Origin: Minisyncoccia bacterium
GTDB lineage: Bacteria; Patescibacteriota; Minisyncoccia; Moranbacterales; GCA-2747515
Direction: 5' to 3'
Assembly: GCA_041738235.1 (NCBI GenBank)
Contig: JBGSQF010000013.1
Location: forward strand, 129,583 to 193,582
Length of the DNA: 64,000 bases
Shown here: in pieces, positions 2,784-62,498 of the stretch
How positions within the stretch are numbered: position 1 is the first letter of the stretch
Layout of the letters: the number at the start of each line of letters is the position of its first letter
Notes under the pieces: model-generated
The model's input: the letters and a program-made list of their open reading frames with translations, nothing else
What the model was told of the DNA's origin: nothing
Databases searched by the model: none
Made by a program: the position numbers and the translations under genes

Positions 2784-2899
2784 GACTTGAAATATCGAAT
2801 ATATGGTATAAGAAACGCAAAGGGGTCTATTTCGGATAGAAAAGCGAATGATGGTCATGTGGTAGATCCTATTTCTTTATTTATAATTTATATCGATCT

Positions 2900-4147
2900 A
2901 TGCAATATTCTCATATTAAAAAAACAGATCCGGCTTTGTACAAGATGATCGTTTCGGAACAAAAGCGTCAGGAAGAAGGAATGGAAATGATCGCCTCTGA
3001 GAACTATGTTTCTGAAGCGGTGCTTGAGGCATTAGGGTCCGTAATGACCAATAAGTATTCTGAGGGATATCCGGGAAAGCGCTATTATGGTGGGCAAAAA
3101 TATATCGACCAGTCAGAGTCACTGGCCATCGAACGCGCGAAGAAACTCTTTAGGGCGCAGCATGTGAATGTACAGCCGCTTTCTGGTGCGCCGGCAAACT
3201 TGGCCGTTTATAATGCCGTACTTAAACCTGGGGATACGGTTTTGGGAATGGATCTCTCACATGGAGGACACCTCACGCATGGTCATCCAGTAACACTTCC
3301 AGCCAAGATCTATAACTTTGTGCGTTACAAGACGGAAAGTGATGGAAAGATCGACTATGAAAAGCTGCGGGCCCTTGCCATCAAAGAAAAGCCGAGACTC
3401 ATCCTCGCGGGATTTTCGGCGTATACGCGCAAGTTGAATTATAAAAAATTTCGTGACATTGCTCGTGAGGTGGGAGCCATCACGATGTTTGATATGGCGC
3501 ATGTGGCGGGACTTATTGCCGGGAAAGCGTATCCCAACCCTGTTCCGTACTTTGATATTGTGACGACCACGACACATAAAACCTTGCGAGGTCCTCGTGG
3601 GGGAATGATTCTGTGCAAAAAAGAGTTTGCCAAAGCGATCGACAAATCGGTATTTCCTGGACTTCAGGGAGGCCCGCACGAGAACAACATTGTGGCTAAG
3701 GCAGTGGCATTTGGTGAGGCGCTCAAGCCCTCTTTTCACACGTATGCCAAACAGATTATCAAGAATGCCAAAGTATTGGAGAAGGAACTTCGAAAGTATG
3801 GTTTTCATATGGAATTTGGAGGTACCGATTCCCACATGGTTTTGGTGAACATGGTCAAAAGCAAAGGGGTGACGGGGAAACAAGCGGAAGAGGCGTTGGA
3901 TAAGATCGGGATCACCATCAATAAAAATATGATCCCCGACGATCCAAGAGGGCCCTTTGATCCGAGTGGGGTTCGTATCGGTGTTCCAGCCATCACCACA
4001 CGCGGAATGAAAGAGAGAGAGGTCATCAAGATCGCAAGGTGGATAAATGATGCGATAGAGCATTATGATAAACCCAAGGAACTTGGTCGGATACATAAAG
4101 AGGTCAAGATCCTGTGTAAAAGATTTCCAGTATACACTACAGGTTAA
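2900..4147 (+). CDS. glyA: Serine hydroxymethyltransferase.
   Basis: A 415-aa protein with full-length SHMT similarity. It has the PLP-lysine region TTTTHKTLRGPRGG and the N-terminal MIASENYVS motif. Confidence 0.95.
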   Translation: MQYSHIKKTDPALYKMIVSEQKRQEEGMEMIASENYVSEAVLEALGSVMTNKYSEGYPGKRYYGGQKYIDQSESLAIERAKKLFRAQHVNVQPLSGAPANLAVYNAVLKPGDTVLGMDLSHGGHLTHGHPVTLPAKIYNFVRYKTESDGKIDYEKLRALAIKEKPRLILAGFSAYTRKLNYKKFRDIAREVGAITMFDMAHVAGLIAGKAYPNPVPYFDIVTTTTHKTLRGPRGGMILCKKEFAKAIDKSVFPGLQGGPHENNIVAKAVAFGEALKPSFHTYAKQIIKNAKVLEKELRKYGFHMEFGGTDSHMVLVNMVKSKGVTGKQAEEALDKIGITINKNMIPDDPRGPFDPSGVRIGVPAITTRGMKEREVIKIARWINDAIEHYDKPKELGRIHKEVKILCKRFPVYTTG

Positions 4148-4310
4148 GTAAATATAGCCCTGGTGCCAAGTTTTGGTAGAGATGGGGACTTCAGCAGATA
4201 TCAACCTTGGAATTACTTGCGGTTTTGTTGAAAAATAAGTAGATATCTTCGCACGAACTGGTGCAGAGCATATACTTTCTGGCAAGATTAAAAATTTTGA
4301 AAAAAAATGT

Positions 4311-5099
4311 ATGAAAGGGATCATTCTTGCTGGGGGAACAGGCACGCGACTTCTCCCTCTTACTGCAACAACGAGTAAACAATTACTTCCTATCTATGAT
4401 CGTCAGATGATCTTTTATCCCATAAACACATTAGTGAGCGCTGGGATCAAAGATATTCTTATTATCGTTTCTCCTGATCATAGTGGGCAATTTCTTAATC
4501 TTTTGGGATCGATGTTTTTGAAGTATGGGGTGCATATCTCTTTTATGGTACAGAAGGTTCCTTGTGGACTAGCTGACGCCTTTATTCTGGGAGAGGATTT
4601 CTTGGACGAAGACTCCGTAACAATGGTTCTGGGAGACAATATATTTGAGGACAACTTTACCGAGGCGATCCGATCATTTGAAAAGGGGGGACGGATATTT
4701 GCTCTTAAGGTACCCGATCCGGAACGATTTGGTGTGGTTGAGTTCGACGAGGCGGGAAAAGTTTTGTCTATCGAGGAAAAACCTGAAAATCCGAGGAGCT
4801 CGTACGCTATTCCTGGGATTTATATTTTTGATAATTCCGTTTCCAATATTGCCAAGCGGGTAGTACCGTCTGAGCGAGGGGAAATCGAGATCACTGAGGT
4901 TCACAAGGCATATCTTCAACAAGGTTTGCTTGATGTGCGAAAGATCACCGGACGTTGGTTTGATGCCGGAAAATTTGAAACGCTTCTTGAGGCAAGTCAA
5001 TTTGCACGTGAGAAAAAGGTCGGTGAAAAATTTGATCCAACTGTTAATAAAGCTATTGAAGAATTTAGTATAGAGATGAAGCGATTGGCAAAGCTTTAG
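4311..5099 (+). CDS. rmlA: Glucose-1-phosphate thymidylyltransferase (short RmlA type).
   Basis: It begins MKGIILAGGTGTRLLPLT. It contains LGDNIF and PERFGVVEFD, and aligns along its length with RmlA. Confidence 0.85.
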   Translation: MKGIILAGGTGTRLLPLTATTSKQLLPIYDRQMIFYPINTLVSAGIKDILIIVSPDHSGQFLNLLGSMFLKYGVHISFMVQKVPCGLADAFILGEDFLDEDSVTMVLGDNIFEDNFTEAIRSFEKGGRIFALKVPDPERFGVVEFDEAGKVLSIEEKPENPRSSYAIPGIYIFDNSVSNIAKRVVPSERGEIEITEVHKAYLQQGLLDVRKITGRWFDAGKFETLLEASQFAREKKVGEKFDPTVNKAIEEFSIEMKRLAKL

Positions 5100-21000: not shown

Positions 21001-21046
21001 ACATTTTGTATTAACTCAACTATTTTTTGATAAGAAAGGTCATATG

Positions 21047-21119
21047 AGCCGATGGCCGGAATCGAACCGGCGACCTACACGTTACGAGTGTGTTGCTCTA
21101 CCAGCTGAGCTACATCGGC
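21047..21119 (-). tRNA. tRNA-Thr (anticodon CGU).
   Basis: It folds manually as a cloverleaf. The acceptor stem is GCCGATG/CATCGGC, the D-arm is GCTC..GAGC, and the anticodon loop is CTCGTAA with U33 and A37. The T-arm is GCCGG-TTCGATT-CCGGC. The CCA end is not encoded. Confidence 0.8.
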
Positions 21120-21261: not shown

Positions 21262-21282
21262 AACACGGTTGCCTATTTTTTC

Positions 21283-21658
21283 AAGGTGGGGGAGACGATC
21301 GCTTCAAGAAATGTCTTGGAGAGGAAAGTCCGGACACTTAACTACTGTCAAGTAGTAGTAACAGTAGCGGGCAATTCCCGCACGCCGCAAGGCGCGAGGT
21401 GCGAGCAGAGACGTCTCTTTTTGTAAAAAAAGAGACACCTCCAATAGAATGAGAAATATCATCTATTGTTTCGAGGTGAGCTTGCTGAGTGATCGGCAAG
21501 GTGAAACGGCTAAATCCTTACTGGAGTGCAAGGTCGAGTCCCAAGCAACAAGCTTAGGAAGTACCGCAAAGATCGTATTGGCAACAATACGACAAGATAA
21601 ATGATCGTTAGGAAGGTATAAAGCTTTCTGATACAGAATCCGGCTTATCGCCCACCTT
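21283..21658 (+). ncRNA. rnpB: RNase P RNA, bacterial type A.
   Basis: The P4 halves GAGGAAAGTCCGGAC and ACAGAATCCGGCTTA are present. A GGTGAAACGGC motif is present. The P1 helix pairs AAGGTGGG at the 5' end with CCCACCTT at the 3' end. Confidence 0.85.
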
Positions 21659-21736
21659 GAAAAAGTATGCAATTAGAAAAGGAAGATTGTTTTTGTATCA
21701 AGACTCGTGTTTACCACCCATAATTTCTAGAGAAGT

Positions 21737-28528: not shown

Positions 28529-29665
28529 TCACTGTTTTTTCACTGTTAGGCTTTTAGTTTCTTTGTCTATTTTTTTCGTGGTGTCTAATTCTTTTTTTAG
28601 CGAGAAGGGGAGTTCACCAGAAACTTTTTTAAGGGCTACACCATCGATCTTGATCACTCGATCAAACAATCCTTTTGGCTCAAGTAAACGACGAACAGAA
28701 GCGATATCGTACGTATACGTTGTGCGTACAGCTCGTTCAATAATCTTTGTTTCACCAAATATTCGTTCTATGCCTTCTTGATTCATACAGTCAGTTATAA
28801 CACCTTGTAACTCTCCGAGGCGTCTTCGATCCGTTGTAGCACGCTCTTTTATTTCCAGATATTCGGCGATCGCCTTCTGGACATCTTCAGTTTCAAGTTT
28901 GCGTTCATCCTTAAATTTATGTCGCCACATTGGGCAGATCTTTTGGAACCCACAGTAGTCACAAAGAGGGGAGACACGCGGATCAAATTTCTGTGCTTCG
29001 ATATCGTGTATTACTTCCAGAAATTTATCATCTAGTTCTTTTAAGTCTTCTTTGGTTCTTAAGGAAGTAAGTTTGACGCCGTGTCGAAGAAAATAAAGGC
29101 TTACAGAAATGTTTTGGAGATCATTCTCCTCTTTTGGATAGCGTTTAAGAAAGGCTCTCATATAGACCGAAAGTTGTATATTATCATCTACGTCTTTTTG
29201 AGAAGGCATCTTCCTTCCAGTTTTGTAGTCCACAATCTCATAGCCCGCATCTGTTTTGTCAATACGGTCGATGATACCAGATATAATATGGACCTCCTTT
29301 GACCTTGGGTCCTCTAGTTCTATAGCAAATCGAGTCTCGAGTCCCACAATGATGATCGAGGCGGGGTCATTGTTCTTGTAATACCTTTGAATGATCTCGA
29401 CCCCCTGAGTGAATGCTGTGCGCTCATCAACTTCTTCGATAAAAAGGGGAGCAATCTCATTGAATTTTTTTGCGAAGAAGTCAAGTGTCTGCTCAAGCGT
29501 TGGTTGGGAAAATCCCGGAGCGTGAACATATTCTAGTACACTATGAAGCAATGTCCCAAAAGCGGCTTCGCGGGATTTTGGTTCCTTGAGCTTATCAATT
29601 TCTTTGTATTTATATTTGAGCGGACAATTCTTGTACGACTCGAAGGATGAGTAGGAAAGACGCAT
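28529..29665 (-). CDS. PD-(D/E)XK superfamily nuclease, Cas4/RecB-like, with a C-terminal Cys cluster.
   Basis: The D...E.K core is IDRIDK...YEIVDYKTG, and it has a QxxxY-like segment. The C-terminal CDYCGFQKICP resembles the Cas4/AddB iron-sulfur cysteine cluster. Neither flank carries a cas gene or a helicase. Confidence 0.7.
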   Translation of the reverse strand: MRLSYSSFESYKNCPLKYKYKEIDKLKEPKSREAAFGTLLHSVLEYVHAPGFSQPTLEQTLDFFAKKFNEIAPLFIEEVDERTAFTQGVEIIQRYYKNNDPASIIIVGLETRFAIELEDPRSKEVHIISGIIDRIDKTDAGYEIVDYKTGRKMPSQKDVDDNIQLSVYMRAFLKRYPKEENDLQNISVSLYFLRHGVKLTSLRTKEDLKELDDKFLEVIHDIEAQKFDPRVSPLCDYCGFQKICPMWRHKFKDERKLETEDVQKAIAEYLEIKERATTDRRRLGELQGVITDCMNQEGIERIFGETKIIERAVRTTYTYDIASVRRLLEPKGLFDRVIKIDGVALKKVSGELPFSLKKELDTTKKIDKETKSLTVKKQ

Positions 29666-29761
29666 ACAAAAAATTATAGGTTATGTTTTGCTGGACTTTA
29701 AGAAGGAGTTACTCTGTATACGGTAGCATTTCTTTTATTAGAAGCAACTTTTTTGAAATAT

Positions 29762-29796
29762 ATAATGTCGCACAATGTATATTTTACGACATTATA
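29762..29796. promoter_or_regulatory. Perfect 9-bp inverted repeat (ATAATGTCG-N17-CGACATTAT) in the promoter region of the PD-(D/E)XK nuclease gene.
   Basis: I read it directly from the sequence at 29762..29770 and 29788..29796, about 100 bp upstream of the nuclease start codon in an AT-rich region. Confidence 0.45.
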
Positions 29797-29816
29797 GAAT
29801 GACCTGTGCTCATATT

Positions 29817-30269
29817 TCAATGATTGTCTGAGTCTACCCATGCCTTATCAACAATGGCAAGCGTTTTAAAAAATGCAAGATAGACCACTAACATCCCTAT
29901 GCTGAACAGAGCAAAAAGTATATTGATCTCCAGAGGCTGATTTTCGGATGCAAAAATCAGTTCAATGGCTGGCGCAATAATGGATATCTCTACGATGTAT
30001 TTTACGCTAATATGATGGTAGCGCATGTAGTATAAAAGCATCCTATAGGACTTCACAAAAACGATTGTAAGCGCTATCGTGTGGAGCACCTTTTCAGCTG
30101 TGAGATTTGGAAAATTAACATAGAGCTTATAAAACTCCAGCAAAGAAAAGAAAATAAGCACAAATATGGTTGCGAGTATGATGACCGACATGAGACTATC
30201 AGTATACCCAACTATTTTTGATATGCTGCCCTTTTTCATGGAGATATTTTTATTCTTAGAATAAGGCAT
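29817..30269 (-). CDS. PsiE-like (phosphate-starvation-inducible) membrane protein.
   Basis: A 150-aa protein with four transmembrane helices. The topology is PsiE-like. Sequence resemblance is modest. Confidence 0.45.
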   Translation of the reverse strand: MPYSKNKNISMKKGSISKIVGYTDSLMSVIILATIFVLIFFSLLEFYKLYVNFPNLTAEKVLHTIALTIVFVKSYRMLLYYMRYHHISVKYIVEISIIAPAIELIFASENQPLEINILFALFSIGMLVVYLAFFKTLAIVDKAWVDSDNH

Positions 30270-30347
30270 TTGAACGTCTTTTACAATGGATTAGGAGGGA
30301 TAGGGGGCTCAAAAAAGCTTATGCTCTCCCCTGCCCCCAAGAAAAAA

Positions 30348-30752
30348 TTATTTTATCCCGTTCTTTTTAAAGCATGCTGTATATTTTTTATCTTCTTCCA
30401 TAATGTGCACTACAAGCCAATCGTTCATAAATTCAAGTAGGTCATACTCAAAAAGCTCCTGTCCCTCATTGAATCGGCTTTCCAAGAGTTTTATTTGCTT
30501 TTTAAATGTGGCATGACCTCTTTTGTGTTCTTCAGTGTGCTCATAATGAAAATCATCGAAATATCTCTCCTCAAAAGCGAAGTGCTGTTCCGCATATTCT
30601 GACAATCCTTTGAGTATCTTTCGTATAGTTTGTTTGTTGTCTGGCTTTAAGAGTGAATGGGAAAGCCTATTAAGGATCTCCACAAATCTTTTGTGCTGTT
30701 TGTCTATTACTGTGAGTCCAGTGCTATATTCTTCTTTCCAAAGTATTGCCAT
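30348..30752 (-). CDS. Hemerythrin-like (bacteriohemerythrin) protein.
   Basis: It contains WKEEYSTGLTVIDKQHK...H...E, the H/E iron-ligand pattern. The start is trimmed to MAILW. Confidence 0.8.
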   Translation of the reverse strand: MAILWKEEYSTGLTVIDKQHKRFVEILNRLSHSLLKPDNKQTIRKILKGLSEYAEQHFAFEERYFDDFHYEHTEEHKRGHATFKKQIKLLESRFNEGQELFEYDLLEFMNDWLVVHIMEEDKKYTACFKKNGIK

Positions 30753-31134
30753 AAGGCTCGGGTATATAAGAATAGACCTATTTTTCCTCCTTTTTAAAAC
30801 CATAGCATATTTTTTCTATTTATGCTAAGCTCATTCATAGAAGACCTTCAGAATAAGGCACTGAATACGGGCGCGAAAGTGCTCATCATGGAACCCACCT
30901 GAGATCTCAGGGAAAATATATTTTTTCCGATGTCTATTTTTACGGGATCCATACGTGCCTTTGCATTGAGGGTCTTTTTGGTTTTTTTGCCCTTTAATAG
31001 CTTTGAGACAAAATTTAAAGACGCATACCACCTCAAGTCCTCCTGGACTCTCGGTATTTATGCGCCTCTCGGTTTTAGAAGGAGTGGTCACTTCCTCAAG
31101 GTGGGGTCGATCTCCCACTTGTTTTACGCATTTA

Positions 31135-34723: not shown

Positions 34724-35473
34724 CTATTCTTCCTTTTTAAGGATATATTCAAAAATGAGCAATGTTGGGAAAACGATAACAGCGCGGAAAATACGCAGTA
34801 CACGACTTGGTTGTCGTATCAAACGAAAAAGCCACTCAAAGCCCAACCGTTGCATCCAACCAGGGGCACGGGAAACTTTTCCGGTCATAAAGTCAAAAGC
34901 ACCTCCTACACCCATCATAATAGCGGGAATTTTTTTCTCTTGTAACTCTCTTAAAAGAAGCTCTTGTTGAGGCGCCCCGAGAGAAGCAAGGATCACTTGA
35001 GCCGTTGAGATCTCTTTGATCATTGTAGAGGATGCCCATTGTTTTGATCCCGAATTTCTGAGTGGAGGGATCAGATCAAACCCGAAGAGCTGTATATTGG
35101 GATATTTTTTTTGAATACGTTCTTTTATTTCCAGAAGCGTACTAAGTCCATGCCTGTGATTGATAACACATACGGTCCAACGATCTCTATGTGCCATTGC
35201 CAAAAGGTCTGAAACCAAATCTACACCAGTGATCCGATCTGGCGCATGACTTCCTCGGATCCAGTAGGCCAACGCGATCCCGTATCCATCACGCACACAT
35301 ATATCAGCGTGACAGAGCGCATCGGAAAATTCAAGATCTCGACGTGCTCTCAAAAGAAATTCCGGATTGATCGTTGCGATGCGAAGAGGTTTTTTGAGTT
35401 GTATGTACTCCCCTATCTGGTGAAGGAGCTCTCGTTTCGAAATGTCGTGTATGGGAACGTTAAATATCTTCAT
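34724..35473 (-). CDS. WecB/TagA/CpsF-family glycosyltransferase (GT26).
   Basis: It contains GVDLV...GFEWLFRLIRQPSRVLR. It is 249 aa. Confidence 0.85.
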   Translation of the reverse strand: MKIFNVPIHDISKRELLHQIGEYIQLKKPLRIATINPEFLLRARRDLEFSDALCHADICVRDGYGIALAYWIRGSHAPDRITGVDLVSDLLAMAHRDRWTVCVINHRHGLSTLLEIKERIQKKYPNIQLFGFDLIPPLRNSGSKQWASSTMIKEISTAQVILASLGAPQQELLLRELQEKKIPAIMMGVGGAFDFMTGKVSRAPGWMQRLGFEWLFRLIRQPSRVLRIFRAVIVFPTLLIFEYILKKEE

Positions 35474-35622
35474 ATTCCCTATTCTACTCTAGGTAGCGAT
35501 ATATTGACAAATCGTAGGTAACATGCTTAGATGTACAATCCTCTGGAAACTCTGTCTCAATGATGGGGACGAAGTGCGATCCGTGAGGTCAGCCAGGCGC
35601 CCAACATAGGGAGGCGCCATAC

Positions 35623-35862
35623 ATGGGGCAACATGCCCCAAGGAGAAAGACCGTGTCCTACCTAGTACTAAGTCGCCGAGCTGGAGAAAAAATCCTAATT
35701 GGCGATAACATGGTGATCACCATCGTGGAGCTCGGCGGAGGCCAGGTCAAGGTTGGTGTGAAGGCTCCGCCCGAGGTTCCGGTTGACAGGGAAGAGGTTC
35801 GGAAACGCAAGGAGGCCGAAAAGGACTATCGGAGGCGGAAAAAGGATCGCAACCGCCGTTAG
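35623..35862 (+). CDS. csrA: Carbon storage regulator CsrA-family RNA-binding protein with a basic C-terminal tail.
   Basis: The motif LVLSRRAGEKILIGDNMVITIVELGGGQVKVGVKAPPEVPVDREEV aligns with CsrA, including the VxREE region. The locus is about 58% GC against about 42% for the window. An alternative start is GTG 35653, which lies 7 nt after an AAGGAG Shine-Dalgarno. Confidence 0.75.
   Translation: MGQHAPRRKTVSYLVLSRRAGEKILIGDNMVITIVELGGGQVKVGVKAPPEVPVDREEVRKRKEAEKDYRRRKKDRNRR
35625..35645 (+). promoter_or_regulatory. Leader hairpin GGGGCAacaTGCCCC followed by an AAGGAG Shine-Dalgarno, upstream of the csrA GTG start.
   Basis: This is a perfect 6-bp stem with a 3-nt loop, read from the sequence. 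GGA-containing sites flank it (aGGGAGG, aaGGAGaa). Confidence 0.4.
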
Positions 35863-35957
35863 ACGGCGACAGCCAGAGGCCAGGGACGGCCCAACAAGAA
35901 ACATCGCAGGAAGCATCCGCGGTGTTTTTTTAATGGGGATTTTTTTGGACAGATTAC

Positions 35958-36500
35958 TTATCTCCCCAGCCCGATCCGTTCGATAGCAACGTACTTTCGT
36001 TTACCTTCAATGATGGTGCTTTCAAATATCAAAACCTCCGTGGCAGGAACAGAAAAGTGTGCGGCAATATCGATCACAGGTTTTTGTGGGAGTGCTTTCC
36101 ATTGTCCTCGACGTACACGTCCTAGGGTGATGTGTGGGTGAAACGATCGGCGGTCCACTACAAAATCACTCAGAGACCTTGCAATACGATTATAAAGATC
36201 TTTTAACTCGTCATTCCCCTCCCCTGTCAGCTCAATGCGGTCAGGATTGTCTATTGGCGTTATCGCAATTTGAGAAACATCCACATCAAAAGCCATCACT
36301 TCTTGACAAGCAAGGGAGATCTTTTCCACGATCTCCGGGAGATCCATGTCATCTACCCAACCCAAGAATAACACCGTGATGTGACGATTTTCCGAGACCG
36401 TCCAAATGACCGGAAGTTCCAAGAAAGGTTCGATCTTTCGGTCGATCCGCTTACCGATGTCCTGAGGCACCGAAATACCAATAAAAAGTCTTCGTTTCAT
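35958..36500 (-). CDS. thpR: 2'-5' RNA ligase / 2H phosphoesterase (LigT/ThpR family).
   Basis: It has two HxT/S motifs (HITVLF and HITLGR). It is about 180 aa after trimming the start to MKRRLFIG. Confidence 0.8.
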   Translation of the reverse strand: MKRRLFIGISVPQDIGKRIDRKIEPFLELPVIWTVSENRHITVLFLGWVDDMDLPEIVEKISLACQEVMAFDVDVSQIAITPIDNPDRIELTGEGNDELKDLYNRIARSLSDFVVDRRSFHPHITLGRVRRGQWKALPQKPVIDIAAHFSVPATEVLIFESTIIEGKRKYVAIERIGLGR

Positions 36501-36618
36501 ATACCTATTGAAACACGAGGTTCGCTTTTTGTACAGGATAGAAGTTTGACTTTTTTTACTGTACCCAGTAAAATTATCTTTCTTCTTTAACAATCCAAAA
36601 ACCCCCAGGAGGTGCAAG

Positions 36619-37248
36619 ATGGACAGGAAAGAGCCTTTCCTGCTATCACTCGCCCTCCGTGGGCGAAAAGGAAACGAAAAGGTGCAGGATGCATTCTTTT
36701 TCATGATGGAGGCCCATCAGGGACAGACCAGGGATACGGGTGAACCGTACTTGGTACACCCCCTCGGCGCAGCTAGGATAGTGTGCTGTGAATTGGGACT
36801 TACGGATGATGTGGAACTCCTTCAGGCGTTGCTGTTGCACGACATCCTGGAGGACACGCGGAAAACTGAAAGGGAACTCTTGGAAAGGTTTGGGGAGGTG
36901 GTGACCGGCTTAGTGGTAATTGTCACAAAGCCTCCAAAACCGCTTGATGAGAAACCACCAGTATTTCAAGCAGTGGAACTTTCCCGCAAGGACCACGCAC
37001 GCAGGATATATGTGCAGGGGATTGCCGACTACCCCGATTGGCGAGCAATACTGGTGAAGCTCGCAGACGCGCTTCACAACCTCCGAACGCTTGACCCCAG
37101 GAAGCCGGAAAAGAGGAAGAGAGTCAAGGAAAAGGTCCTCTTTTACTATCTCTGGTTGGTCGACGTGCTTATCAAGAAAGCACCTGACCAAAGAGAACGT
37201 GCTAAATATCTCCGCAGAGAGATCCTTTTGGCAATCCAATCCATCTAG
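36619..37248 (+). CDS. RelA/SpoT-type HD-domain protein (small alarmone hydrolase, (p)ppGpp hydrolase-like).
   Basis: It contains AHQGQTRDTGEPYLVHPL...LLHDILEDT...ILVKLADALHNLRTL, the canonical SpoT HD hydrolase motifs. At 209 aa it has no synthetase domain. Confidence 0.75.
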   Translation: MDRKEPFLLSLALRGRKGNEKVQDAFFFMMEAHQGQTRDTGEPYLVHPLGAARIVCCELGLTDDVELLQALLLHDILEDTRKTERELLERFGEVVTGLVVIVTKPPKPLDEKPPVFQAVELSRKDHARRIYVQGIADYPDWRAILVKLADALHNLRTLDPRKPEKRKRVKEKVLFYYLWLVDVLIKKAPDQRERAKYLRREILLAIQSI

Positions 37249-37329
37249 AACCCCCGGGACGCAGTAGCGCTCGGGGGTTCAACACATAGACCTTTGCGTT
37301 CGAGCGCCTTCTTGCTACACTAACGATAT

Positions 37330-39318
37330 ATGAAACAAGAAAAAACATGCCTCCTCTCTGTGATCCCCCTGGTACATATCGCTCCCTCTCGTGGACATAT
37401 TTTTTCCTATACTTTTTCTTCCCCGATCCCCATCGGTACATTAGTAGAGATCCCATTAGGAAAAACTCGCATAGTATTGGGCATTGTAGTTACCTCGAAG
37501 ATCACAACTATCTCCCAAAAAGGACTGAAGTCTATCAAAAAAATAGTCTCCCCTTCTCTTCTTGCCGAAAAACATATTGCTTTTGCCGAATATATCGCTC
37601 GGGAATATTTTGGATCGGTCGGAACGATCCTTGATCTTTTTCGTCCTCCCAAGATCAAGAAGGTCAAGTCTCAAAAGTCACTCAAGAATGAGTCTATTGA
37701 GAGCATACAACTTACCCCAAAACAAAAAAATGCTGTAAAGAAAATAGCACAAACAAAAAATCCCATTCTTCTCACAGGACCCCCTGCATCAGGAAAGACG
37801 GAGGTGCTGATCGAGGTGGTCAAGAGGGTTCTTCAGGAAGGTAAACAGGTTCTATTTCTGCTTCCTGAGATCACGCTTACACCGCATTCGGTCGATCGAA
37901 TGACCAGGAGACTGGGAAGTGGTTGCGTCTCTGTTTTTCATAGCGCACTCACCAAGGGTCAACGTGCATCCGTATGGCACGGTATTGCCTCAGGAAGATC
38001 GCAAGTCGTGATCGGTTCACGGTCCGCGCTTTTCCTTCCCTTCCAGAATTTGGGGCTTGTGATCGTTGATGAGGAAAATGACGATTCTTATAAACAAACA
38101 CTGAAATCTCCTCGATATGATACTCGGATCGTAGCGGAAAAACTCGCCAAGATCCACCAAGCGAGAACAATATTTTGTAGTTCTACACCCAGAAGTGAAA
38201 CACTTTTTCGAGTTGATCATAAGACCCTGGATATCGTCGATCTCCCAATATTAGAGATGAAAAAAAGTCTCTCTCCTCCTCAAATACAGATCGTAGATAT
38301 GCGCCTTGCTCACTGGAAGAACAAACAAAAGAAAATGTCCCCACCTATTTTTTCAGAAGATCTGATCGAACGCATTCGAGAAACACTCAAAAGAAAGGAA
38401 CAGATCCTGCTTTTGGTGAGCCGCCAAGGAATGAATGCATTCTCTTTATGTACAGTGTGTAAAAATATTCTTCGTTGCCCAAAATGTGACCGCGCCCTCG
38501 TAGGACAACACTCCGGTCACTACTTGTGCCTTGGAGGGCACTTCCGAACACAAGCATTTCCCAAATGTCCAACTTGCGGAGGATTGCAGTTTACAAGTCA
38601 TGGTGTTGGAACCCAAAAGGTAGAAGAGGAACTTGTGCGTCTTTTTCCTTATTCACGGATCGCTCGATTTGATTCTCAAGTGGCCCAAAAACGGTCTCTT
38701 CGTGAGTCGCTATTCTCCGATATGTCAGATAGAAAGATCGATATCCTCATCGGAACACAGATGATAGCTAAGGGCTGGGACATCTCCCACCTTTCACTGA
38801 TCGGGATCATAGACTCTGATTCTTTTTTCTCCATTCCCGACTACTCTACTGATGCTCGAATAGCACAGCTCTTGTTCCAGGCGCGAGGACGACTCAACCG
38901 CGTGGGAAGTATTTCTTCCGGAGCGCTTCTTATACAAACATACCATTCCGAAAGACCAATTTTTTCCTTCCTTGAAAAGAACAATTACACTGGATTTATA
39001 ACAGAGGAAATGGAAACACGACAAGCGTTAAAATACCCCCCCTATTGTCGCTTGCTTCGATTAGTGGGTAAGAGTACCAATGATATCAAATTACGTGCCC
39101 AGGCACTTGATCTCTATAAAGAGATGGCAAGCATCAAAGATCCCGATCTTGTCATAGCACGCCCCACAAAATCTCTCAAACGTCAAAAAATGGGGATCTT
39201 TTCCCGTCAGATAGTGATCAAGCATTTTTCCCAACAAATTTCGCCCCCCATTCGAAAAATACTTGAAAATATCCCTAAGAACTGGTACATTGATAATGAT
39301 GCTGTGTCCATTGCTTAA
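37330..39318 (+). CDS. priA: Primosomal protein N' (PriA helicase).
   Basis: Walker A is GPPASGKT. It has a Cys-rich zinc-binding insertion (CTVCKNILRCPKCD...CPTCGG) and a helicase C domain. Confidence 0.9.
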   Translation: MKQEKTCLLSVIPLVHIAPSRGHIFSYTFSSPIPIGTLVEIPLGKTRIVLGIVVTSKITTISQKGLKSIKKIVSPSLLAEKHIAFAEYIAREYFGSVGTILDLFRPPKIKKVKSQKSLKNESIESIQLTPKQKNAVKKIAQTKNPILLTGPPASGKTEVLIEVVKRVLQEGKQVLFLLPEITLTPHSVDRMTRRLGSGCVSVFHSALTKGQRASVWHGIASGRSQVVIGSRSALFLPFQNLGLVIVDEENDDSYKQTLKSPRYDTRIVAEKLAKIHQARTIFCSSTPRSETLFRVDHKTLDIVDLPILEMKKSLSPPQIQIVDMRLAHWKNKQKKMSPPIFSEDLIERIRETLKRKEQILLLVSRQGMNAFSLCTVCKNILRCPKCDRALVGQHSGHYLCLGGHFRTQAFPKCPTCGGLQFTSHGVGTQKVEEELVRLFPYSRIARFDSQVAQKRSLRESLFSDMSDRKIDILIGTQMIAKGWDISHLSLIGIIDSDSFFSIPDYSTDARIAQLLFQARGRLNRVGSISSGALLIQTYHSERPIFSFLEKNNYTGFITEEMETRQALKYPPYCRLLRLVGKSTNDIKLRAQALDLYKEMASIKDPDLVIARPTKSLKRQKMGIFSRQIVIKHFSQQISPPIRKILENIPKNWYIDNDAVSIA

Positions 39319-59938: not shown

Positions 59939-60586
59939 CTATTTTATCTTGAGTACATTCACGACTTTCCCATTGATGACGAAGTTGTCTTCTGAGGTAA
60001 GAAATATAGGTTTGTGCTTGATATCCGTAGACTCCGGCATGAGGACAATATTGTGCCCATCGTGCGAGCGATAGGTTTTGACGGTTGCCAGGCCGTCGAT
60101 AATGACCAACACCTTATCACCCGTTTCATAATTACGAGCGGATTTGTCCACCAGAACAAAATCACCATCCTCTATCGTCTTGCCATTCACCTTAGCCTTG
60201 TTCATAGACGTTCCGGAGATCTGCACCGCAAACACATCACGATTCCGCACGATATTCCTCGAAACTTTAAGATATCCTTCCACGTATTCATCTGCAAAGG
60301 CCAAGGCTGTTCCAGCATTTGCCATGCCTAAAACAGGCACATCCATAAATGTTTCCATTGTGACCCCTTTGAGTTTTATACCTCGATCCTCTGAAGTTCG
60401 TTGTATATACCCCTTCTCCTCTAGTTCATTGAGATAGAGAAAGAAACTGCGAATGCTCTTGAGCTTGAGTCCTAATTTTCCAGCCTCCCCTTGTATCTCT
60501 CGAACTGTAGGCATCTGCTTGTGCTGAGAAAAATACCCCTTGATCGCTTGAAGCACGATCTTTTGTTTTGGTGTGAGCAACTCCAT
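59939..60586 (-). CDS. lexA: LexA repressor.
   Basis: The N-terminus is a winged helix-turn-helix. The C-terminal S24 peptidase domain has the catalytic Ser-Met dyad (ISGTSM) and the catalytic Lys (KHKPIF). Confidence 0.85.
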   Translation of the reverse strand: MELLTPKQKIVLQAIKGYFSQHKQMPTVREIQGEAGKLGLKLKSIRSFFLYLNELEEKGYIQRTSEDRGIKLKGVTMETFMDVPVLGMANAGTALAFADEYVEGYLKVSRNIVRNRDVFAVQISGTSMNKAKVNGKTIEDGDFVLVDKSARNYETGDKVLVIIDGLATVKTYRSHDGHNIVLMPESTDIKHKPIFLTSEDNFVINGKVVNVLKIK

Positions 60587-60838: not shown

Positions 60839-62329
<1,491 letters not shown>

Positions 62330-62498
62330 AATAAATACGATCGTTGCGAGTCGCTTTGTTCGTATCAACAAAAGCGAAAGAATTTCAATTTACATTGAGA
62401 ACTCTCAACAATGTTTTCTGAACTGTGTTCAGATTGTTTTGAATAGACTCTTGTTTTTTTAGTATCTGACCACCGTTACCGGGGTCATCTCCTAAAAA

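Follow-up and report, generated by a model that had tools for sequence, protein, structure and literature searches.

A csrA gene and a stand-alone RelA/SpoT-type hydrolase gene on either side of a 2H phosphoesterase gene in a Minisyncoccia genome

Organization of the locus

The stretch of DNA analysed here, called the window, comprises 64,000 nt of contig JBGSQF010000013.1 from a Minisyncoccia bacterium (assembly GCA_041738235.1), and all coordinates below are positions within it. The block under study (35520-37330) carries three small genes, which encode a CsrA-family RNA binder (csrA), a 2H phosphoesterase (2H) and a stand-alone RelA/SpoT-type HD hydrolase (HD). An original prediction had regarded this block as one GC-rich island, acquired horizontally, in which the three genes would form a functional module. 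The identities which it gave to the three proteins have been confirmed by Pfam, and that of 2H also by NCBIfam (in Pfam, CsrA at 3.9e-19, LigT_PEase/2_5_RNA_ligase2 at 1.7e-12 and HD_4 at 1.1e-19), and so have the flanks of the block, which Pfam assigns to WecG/TagA (GT26) and PriA.

The left flank is a core gene for a wecG/tagA-family glycosyltransferase (34724-35473, minus strand; Glyco_tran_WecG, 7.7e-40), which lies directly downstream of 2H in most relatives, as seen from the synteny of the loci L005, L009, L253, L010 and L011. A sequence TTGTCA-18-TAGAAT ends 8 nt before its start codon (ATG 35473). It is followed by the csrA promoter and 5' leader (35504-35652, plus strand), recognized by conservation with the related locus L006 and by the minimum free energy (MFE) fold, and by the accessory gene csrA itself (35653-35862, plus strand). 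A putative bidirectional terminator hairpin with A and T runs on its flanks (35896-35931) separates csrA from the native core gene 2H (35958-36500, minus strand), which encodes a ThpR/LigT-type enzyme (RNA 2',3'-cyclic phosphodiesterase) of 180 aa. The divergent 2H/HD spacer of 118 bp (36501-36618) holds the predicted HD promoter and ribosome-binding site, and then come the accessory gene HD (36619-37248, plus strand), a small alarmone hydrolase-like gene, a hairpin directly 3' of its stop codon (37248-37280, plus strand; recognized by its fold), and the right flank, the core gene priA with its own extended -10 box (37313-39318, ATG 37330, plus strand; Pfam PriA_3primeBD, DEAD and Helicase_C).

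Hence csrA (+) is convergent with 2H (-), and 2H is divergent from HD (+). This order, together with separate promoters and terminators, agrees with the earlier statement that the genes are not a single operon; the predicted promoters, ribosome-binding sites and terminators mark out three separate transcription units, and the putative priA promoter is kept with or without HD. The extended -10 box of priA in the window (TGcTACACT, 37313-37321) stands 8 nt before the ATG. A box of the form TGnTACAMT is found 7-9 nt before the priA ATG, irrespective of the presence of HD, in the window, L001, L005, L007, L009, L170 and L172, which suggests a conserved leaderless priA mRNA.

No integrase, transposase, tRNA target or flanking direct repeat was found around the block. 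The candidate repeats flanking it proved to be short imperfect chance matches inside coding regions, and the open reading frames (ORFs) that lie antisense within csrA and HD were discarded, being artefacts of frames that are long or rich in GC. The sole tRNA of the window, a tRNA-Thr (CGT anticodon; 21046-21119, minus strand), lies at 21 kb. Hairpins do exist at both borders of the block, as had been reported, but they belong to the csrA leader and to ordinary terminators and are not island boundaries.

Base composition of the block

The composition of each gene was referred to the 59 other ORFs of the window, in which the GC content at third codon positions (GC3) has a mean of 0.411 and a standard deviation of 0.041. 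The block has 49.9% GC, the highest value among the 1.8-kb stretches of the window (mean 43.0%, standard deviation 2.1%), where it ties with the 16S rRNA gene (60841-62335). Its tetranucleotide deviation (z of about 2.8) is the third in the window, behind an AT-rich stretch at 29-30 kb and the 16S rRNA gene. The block is an outlier, as predicted, but it is not uniformly of 50-58% GC. The 200-nt GC profile shows two peaks, at 35600-35999 (54-60%) and 36600-37299 (50-55%), with a trough of 39-47% between them, and only csrA (GC 55.7%, GC3 0.63, z = 5.3) and HD (GC 51.7%, GC3 0.60, z = 4.5) deviate, chiefly at third codon positions, whereas 2H (GC 46.4%, GC3 0.46, z = 1.2) is at background. Instead of one island there are two distinct genes rich in GC. 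No GC3 excess is seen in the ribosomal protein genes of the window (0.45 for L9 and 0.36 for L27), and therefore what csrA and HD show is not the composition typical of highly expressed genes, a match with which the original prediction had named as counting against a foreign origin.

The divergence at synonymous sites (dS) between the window and L001 is 1.1-2.5 across all 14 orthologous pairs, which is saturated. Despite this saturation the orthologues of csrA and HD hold a GC3 of 0.54-0.78 in genomes of 40-48% GC. These are csrA of L006 (7709-7939), with a GC3 of 0.78 in a locus of 43.9% GC, HD of L001 (10001-10627; 0.54 versus about 0.35 in neighbouring genes) and HD of L172 (5180-5878; 0.60 versus about 0.52), to be compared with 0.60 versus about 0.41 for HD of the window. 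The GC signal of csrA and HD is, from these comparisons of orthologues, old and confined to two genes of separate histories. Simple amelioration would not predict such a lasting excess. It would most likely stem from a foreign origin, plausible for both genes, after which amelioration was incomplete or resisted. No donor was identified for either; a word-indexed protein search for CsrA returned just the query.

Distribution among related loci

Homologues of 2H and HD led to nine related loci, several of them on short contigs. The lineage is very sparsely sampled, with the exact proteins found only on one NCBI contig of 408 kb and a few Logan contigs. The conserved backbone consists of fmt-def-priA, divergent from 2H-wecG-gltX-cupin-malic enzyme, and a recheck with hidden Markov models (HMMs) places 2H in the same slot in all nine relatives.

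The two accessory genes behave differently. HD is present between 2H and priA in three genomes, namely the window, L001 (71-73% identity) and L172 (43% identity, as against 52% for priA and 55% for 2H of the same locus). Its orientation, the distance of about 80 bp to priA and the hairpin behind it are the same in all three. HD is absent from L005, L007/8, L009 and L170, in all of which priA adjoins 2H, and likewise from L253 and L006. Only the window and L006 have csrA in the space between 2H and wecG, convergent with 2H in both, and the two loci can be aligned over the -35 box, the TGCTTAnAT box, the two leader hairpins, the Shine-Dalgarno spacing, the csrA coding region and the terminator. 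An 81-aa ORF after 2H in L007 and a 69-aa ORF in L172 were considered and are not csrA. Both genes are thus found in the window, HD only in L001 and L172, csrA only in L006, and neither in L005, L007, L009 and L253; as all four combinations occur, there is no sign of co-inheritance.

Two relatives retain remnants of the csrA cassette. In L001 about 100 bp of the csrA leader is kept, while the -35 box and everything from the start codon on have been lost. In L005 the left half of the terminator is fused to the wecG ATG by a clean deletion of about 490 bp. The 2H tree pairs the window with L001 and makes this pair the sister group of (L005, (L006, P0045)). This topology, taken with the scars in L001 and L005, implies that the csrA cassette was present in the common ancestor and was lost twice.

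The csrA gene and its leader

The csrA product (69 aa) scores 68.8 bits against Pfam PF02599 (cutoff 27) and narrowly misses the NCBIfam equivalog cutoffs (64.1 against 73 bits, and 61 against 70.1). Its best PDB matches are E. coli and Yersinia CsrA, at about 1e-13. The RNA-binding residues are kept as YLVLSRR (beta1 LxLxRR) and VPVDREEV (beta5 VxVxREE, with the equivalent of Arg44). Translation most likely starts at GTG 35653, which stands 7 nt past AAGGAG and is homologous to the ATG of the L006 orthologue; an in-frame ATG upstream of it (35623) is not conserved and was rejected.

The putative promoter is assigned from TTGACA-N14-TGCTTAnAT, conserved in L006. In the window its -35 box TTGACA (35504-35509) is back-to-back with the wecG promoter and shared with it, and is followed by TGc-TTAGAT (35524-35532). 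The leader folds into two hairpins, both of which are in the MFE fold (z = -3.1). The first (35596-35618) has GGCGCC stems and an 11-nt loop ending in GGA (35610-35612), and the second (35624-35640) abuts the Shine-Dalgarno sequence AAGGAG (35640-35645), which contains another GGA (35642-35644). The leader of L006 csrA has the identical layout of two hairpins and AAGGAG. Downstream of the gene, the fold of 35860-35960, with the terminator between csrA and 2H, reaches -33.4 kcal/mol (z = -4.7); this terminator is homologous to that of L006, and it is half of it that was left as the deletion scar in L005.

Autorepression is known for E. coli csrA, whose leader likewise carries GGA motifs in the loop of a hairpin and in the Shine-Dalgarno sequence. 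The CsrA of the window would be a canonical GGA-binding translational regulator, which would repress its own translation by bridging the GGA of the first hairpin and that of the Shine-Dalgarno sequence. The 32 nt between the two fit dual-site binding by a CsrA dimer, and autorepression is probable given the layout conserved in L006. Neither fliW nor a CsrB-like decoy RNA was seen in the window, and a scan of it for CsrB-like GGA-dense RNAs gave nothing above the coding-region background.

The window gene is only 52% identical to that of L006, and against E. coli CsrA the L006 protein scores 84.6 bits and that of the window 53.6 bits. The occurrence of csrA in ultra-small bacteria is not new, since the gene has been reported among the highly expressed genes of groundwater ultra-small bacteria (PMC9938205).

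The 2H phosphoesterase gene

The 2H product scores 87.4 bits against the NCBIfam equivalog TIGR02258 (RNA 2',3'-cyclic phosphodiesterase; cutoff 65.7) and carries both HxT motifs, as HITV and HITL. H40-I-T and H123-I-T are kept in 12 of the 13 orthologues. A 248-aa version of the ORF was rejected as an artefact of a long reading frame. Orthologues in conserved synteny are graded from 87% down to 52% identity, and the ratio of nonsynonymous to synonymous divergence (dN/dS) against L001 is 0.054. As read from these orthologues, 2H is a resident, vertically inherited core gene.

The 2H gene stands immediately upstream of wecG/tagA, on the same strand, in all loci of the clade and also in the GTDB and JGI loci L010, L011, L091 and L092. 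This adjacency reaches, at 39% and 35% identity, GTDB metagenome-assembled genomes that bear the names Parcubacteria group and Moranbacteria; the 2H-wecG pair is deep, and no functional reason for it is obvious. These nearest named relatives make it probable that the lineage belongs to the candidate phyla radiation (CPR, Patescibacteria). In L253 the 2H orthologue (2825-3367, P0053) is without both catalytic histidines, with NQYVIL and HPRCTL instead of NRHITV and HPHITL. Apart from this it is well conserved, with its synteny retained, and the enzyme may have been inactivated or repurposed.

The HD hydrolase gene

The HD product (209 aa) scores 71.1 bits against Pfam PF13328 (HD_4; cutoff 27.2). 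Its best PDB match is the N-terminal hydrolase domain of T. thermophilus Rel (over residues 3-180 of HD, 1.8e-25). The structures of Rel, SpoT and MESH1 match it at 1e-25 to 1e-15 (MESH1 at 4e-16), and the bacterial small alarmone hydrolases (SAHs) at 1e-7 or weaker (about 1e-6 for the P. aeruginosa SAH). Seven residues (H47, H74, D75, E78, D79, D150 and N154) are invariant in all family members, with nine sequences aligned, and they cover the metal and catalytic set of HD enzymes, that is, the His of HP, the HD dyad, the ED dyad, and the Asp and Asn of KLADxLHN. Synthetase, TGS and ACT domains are lacking, and the stop codon is followed by the hairpin and then by priA. No alarmone synthetase is encoded in the 64-kb window, as had been stated before, and no RelA_SpoT synthetase similarity was detected anywhere in it.

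A promoter scan gives TTGACT-17-TAAAAT (36546-36574) for HD, followed by a ribosome-binding site GGAGG (36609-36613). The spacer between 2H and HD is kept in L001, including TTGACT, TAAAAT and CAGGAGGT. The hairpin after HD (-31.6 kcal/mol, z = -3.5), the stem of which is common to L001 and L172, is probably a terminator or an mRNA-stabilising stem. From its own promoter and strong ribosome-binding site, HD would be expressed as an Mn2+-dependent 3'-pyrophosphohydrolase removing (p)ppGpp or (p)ppApp, an activity predicted from the intact catalytic set.

Relatives of HD are rare. In an exhaustive HMMER search, only three of 1.84 billion representatives reached E<=1e-30, and a handful of proteins of about 200 aa had the family motifs, the remainder being long RelA/SpoT homologues (RSHs) or unrelated fragments. 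The family has about six known members among 15 billion proteins (window, L001, L172, P0069, P0070 and P0073), and its motifs are VTKP..PKP, DWR, KLAD[AV]LHN and a C-terminal KEK..YY. The nearest relatives outside the family are long RSHs, some of them named Methylomirabilis, Thermoanaerobaculia and Polyangia. Two matches on long contigs, P0009 and P0013 (37-38% identity), were examined as possible SAHs and are N-terminal pieces of frameshifted long RSH genes. A viral scan with the HD alignment found no relatives. By these sequence criteria HD is a hydrolase-only RSH of a small branch, which is apparently undescribed. Literature linking SAHs or ppGpp with the CPR was sought, and nothing useful was found.

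Search for the three genes elsewhere

Scans of GTDB and JGI metagenomes with the 2H alignment gave matches from outside the clade itself, the best at 39-40% identity, and these were used as a co-occurrence panel. None of the 160 distant 2H loci has an HD_4 gene within 5-6 kb, and csrA lies within 2 kb of 2H in only two of them, the related pair L094 and L096. Likewise, none of 80 viral csrA loci has 2H, and no family of PADLOC-DB models matched the csrA, 2H or HD proteins. As the distant 2H loci, the viral csrA loci and PADLOC are all negative, the trio is not a recurring module, and co-localisation in other genomes, the absence of which the original prediction had named as counting against itself, comes down to csrA near 2H in that one pair. 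Nor does anything support a defence effector, which leaves its other suggestion, the effector side of a nucleotide-signalling system, without a PADLOC match or other backing.

Two kinds of neighbourhood met in these scans are described here for themselves. In L094 (2617-5195) and L096 (473-2844), both of 36-37% GC, 2H is followed by an ORF that resembles murC, judged by eye, and by csrA on the opposite strand; csrA is convergent and has its own TTGACA-N17-TAnAAT promoter, which makes this a second, different placing of csrA near 2H. In the viral locus L186 (IMGVR_UViG_3300033153_006739; 3690-4891) a helix-turn-helix-like ORF, recognized by eye, csrA, a 138-aa ORF and a phage-type SAH gene occur within 1.2 kb. 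There csrA and the SAH gene are about 400 bp apart, the sole co-occurrence of csrA and an HD gene found outside the window.

Other features of the window

The AT-rich stretch at 29100-31000 (36-37% GC) has the largest tetranucleotide deviation in the window (z = 3.6), exceeding that of the block, and is kept in L001. It carries a hemerythrin-domain ORF (30348-30803; a Pfam call on the L001 orthologue) and a 150-aa hypothetical membrane-like ORF. The 16S rRNA gene (60841-62335, minus strand) is complete and solitary. Since no 23S, 5S or spacer tRNA genes are found in the window, the rRNA genes are unlinked. The gene next downstream of 16S (59939-60586) is LexA-like, as judged from its N-terminal translation alone. 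The RNase P RNA (class A, 119 bits; 21282-21663, plus strand) adjoins the single tRNA gene, and the Rfam scan of the window gave the 16S, RNase P and the one tRNA, with nothing further.

Origin of the region

The reading favoured here, with a probability of about 0.8, is that the region consists of a native 2H gene and two independent, old and patchily kept accessory cassettes, which do not form a module. A self-contained csrA cassette (promoter, leader of about 115 nt, ORF and terminator) would have entered the space between 2H and wecG in the common ancestor of one subclade, which comprises the window, L001, L005 and L006, and would later have been deleted in L001 and L005. The HD_4 gene would have been inserted between 2H and priA's own promoter and kept in the window, L001 and L172. 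The horizontal acquisition proposed for the whole block survives in this reading for csrA and HD, which are compositionally foreign-looking and patchy, but not for 2H, which is vertically inherited, and neither accessory gene is recent. HD is not recent because L001 has it too, at saturated dS, and L172 carries it in the same slot with 43% identity; csrA is not recent because its cassette is homologous to that of L006 and has left deletion scars in L001 and L005.

An alternative of some weight, unlikely as it is, holds that the GC excess of csrA and HD does not stem from transfer and has been kept by selection or a local process, such as mRNA structure or stability, the codon preference of small regulators expressed at very high levels, or GC-biased gene conversion in accessory slots that recombine often. 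It would fit a GC3 which stays 0.13-0.4 above that of neighbours across saturated dS, unlike simple amelioration. It would also fit the mild GC enrichment of csrA in the unrelated low-GC CPR-like loci L094 and L096, and the place of csrA among the most highly expressed genes in groundwater ultra-small bacteria (PMC9938205). However, GC3 is not high in the ribosomal protein genes of the window, so that a general bias linked to expression is absent, and 2H, lying between csrA and HD without any excess, argues against a regional recombination effect.

It is quite unlikely that the spacers beside 2H are insertion hot spots, at which csrA (in the window versus L006) and HD (in the window and L001 versus L172) would have been gained repeatedly, for example from phages or GC-richer bacteria. 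The foreign-looking GC3 of both genes in every carrier genome, the very close likeness of the GC3-rich csrA of L006 to proteobacterial CsrA together with its distance from that of the window, the abundance of csrA on viral contigs (>379 matches, up to 57% identity) and the patchy distribution of HD without deletion scars would all fit such repeated gains. Yet the csrA promoter, both hairpins, the Shine-Dalgarno spacing and the terminator of the window have their homologues in L006, and the cassette remnants in L001 and L005 speak for loss, not primary absence. Similarly, the HD proteins of the three carriers (window, L001 and L172) have in common derived motifs that long RSHs lack, their orientation, distance of about 80 bp to priA and hairpin are conserved, and no viral relative of HD was found.

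A more speculative proposal, which is doubtful, makes HD the sole alarmone enzyme of a reduced, probably episymbiotic genome without a synthetase, where it would clear or recycle (p)ppGpp or (p)ppApp coming from the host, from scavenged pools or from a toxSAS-type attack; the foreign codons of csrA and HD would then reflect repeated cassette exchange at fixed slots among related ultra-small bacteria. If the genome indeed lacks a synthetase, HD would not switch off the cell's own stringent response.

The idea that the whole 1.8 kb is one acquired island with a functional csrA/2H/HD module, either post-transcriptional and alarmone-clearing or the effector of a signalling system, draws on the GC maximum and tetranucleotide outlier of the window, on the action of all three proteins on RNA or nucleotides and on the neighbourhood of csrA and a phage-type SAH in L186, and is very improbable against a 2H gene of background composition in the same slot of every relative, csrA and HD in different spacers with independent variation, the negative panels (0/160 distant 2H loci with HD_4, 0/80 viral csrA loci with 2H), separate transcription units, and the lack of mobility genes, repeats and any PADLOC match.

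Several points weigh against the reading of a native 2H gene with two old cassettes. The scenario of gain and loss is drawn from the nine related loci and a single-gene neighbour-joining tree of the 180-aa 2H protein. Parsimony does not clearly favour an ancestral HD with at least four losses over two gains in one spacer, and no HD deletion scars were found in the relatives without HD. The closeness of L006 csrA to that of E. coli, with its GC3 of 0.78, also fits a later allele replacement inside the cassette, and the reading does not account for a GC3 that stays high after saturating divergence. The conservation of the csrA leader is that of two sequences, the window and L006, and both the autorepression of csrA and the alarmone hydrolysis by HD have been inferred from sequence.

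No new system is revealed here, the module reading is not upheld, and all three proteins belong to known families. What the locus offers is a rare hydrolase-only RelA/SpoT branch in an almost unsampled lineage, a solitary csrA cassette with a conserved leader of the autoregulatory type, and a clean small example of accessory genes gained and then lost at fixed intergenic slots, with the deletion scars visible. The lasting GC-rich codon usage of csrA and HD bears on models of amelioration. Should the genome be without any alarmone synthetase, the question would be which alarmone pool an ultra-small symbiont must degrade.

Comparison with known systems

The region resembles genomic islands in its local compositional deviation and in having two genes that are patchy among relatives. 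It differs from them in lacking an integrase, a tRNA, att repeats and any one pair of boundaries; its central gene is native, and the deviant genes csrA and HD are old and have separate histories. The deviation does not extend across the whole element, with 2H at background, and close relatives in which the flanks are retained do not lack the element as one block, its parts varying independently.

The 2H protein agrees with the ThpR/LigT 2H phosphoesterases (TIGR02258, E. coli ThpR) in its score above the equivalog cutoff, its two HxT motifs and its length of about 180 aa. Nothing about it is unusual save its fixed position between priA and wecG in the lineage.

The csrA product shares, by Pfam and by PDB sequence match, the fold family of CsrA/RsmA proteins (E. 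coli CsrA, PDB 1Y00; Yersinia, 2BTI; Pseudomonas RsmE, 2JPP). Unlike these, it shares only about 50% identity with any other CsrA found, ends in a strongly basic C-terminal tail, RKRKEAEKDYRRRKKDRNRR, and is encoded in a solitary cassette.

Eleven SAH subfamilies have been described (Jimmy et al., 2020; PMC7229694). Like the SAHs (Mesh1, PbcSpo, PaSpo and C. glutamicum RelH), HD is a single-domain HD_4 protein of about 200 aa with the catalytic residues intact. In a comparison made with the solved SAH structures, it is nearer by sequence to the hydrolase domains of long Rel/SpoT than to any solved SAH. The HD gene does not adjoin a toxSAS gene, and its family is further set apart from the SAHs by VTKP, DWR, the lack of an Arg after KLAD, and a C-terminal helical extension.

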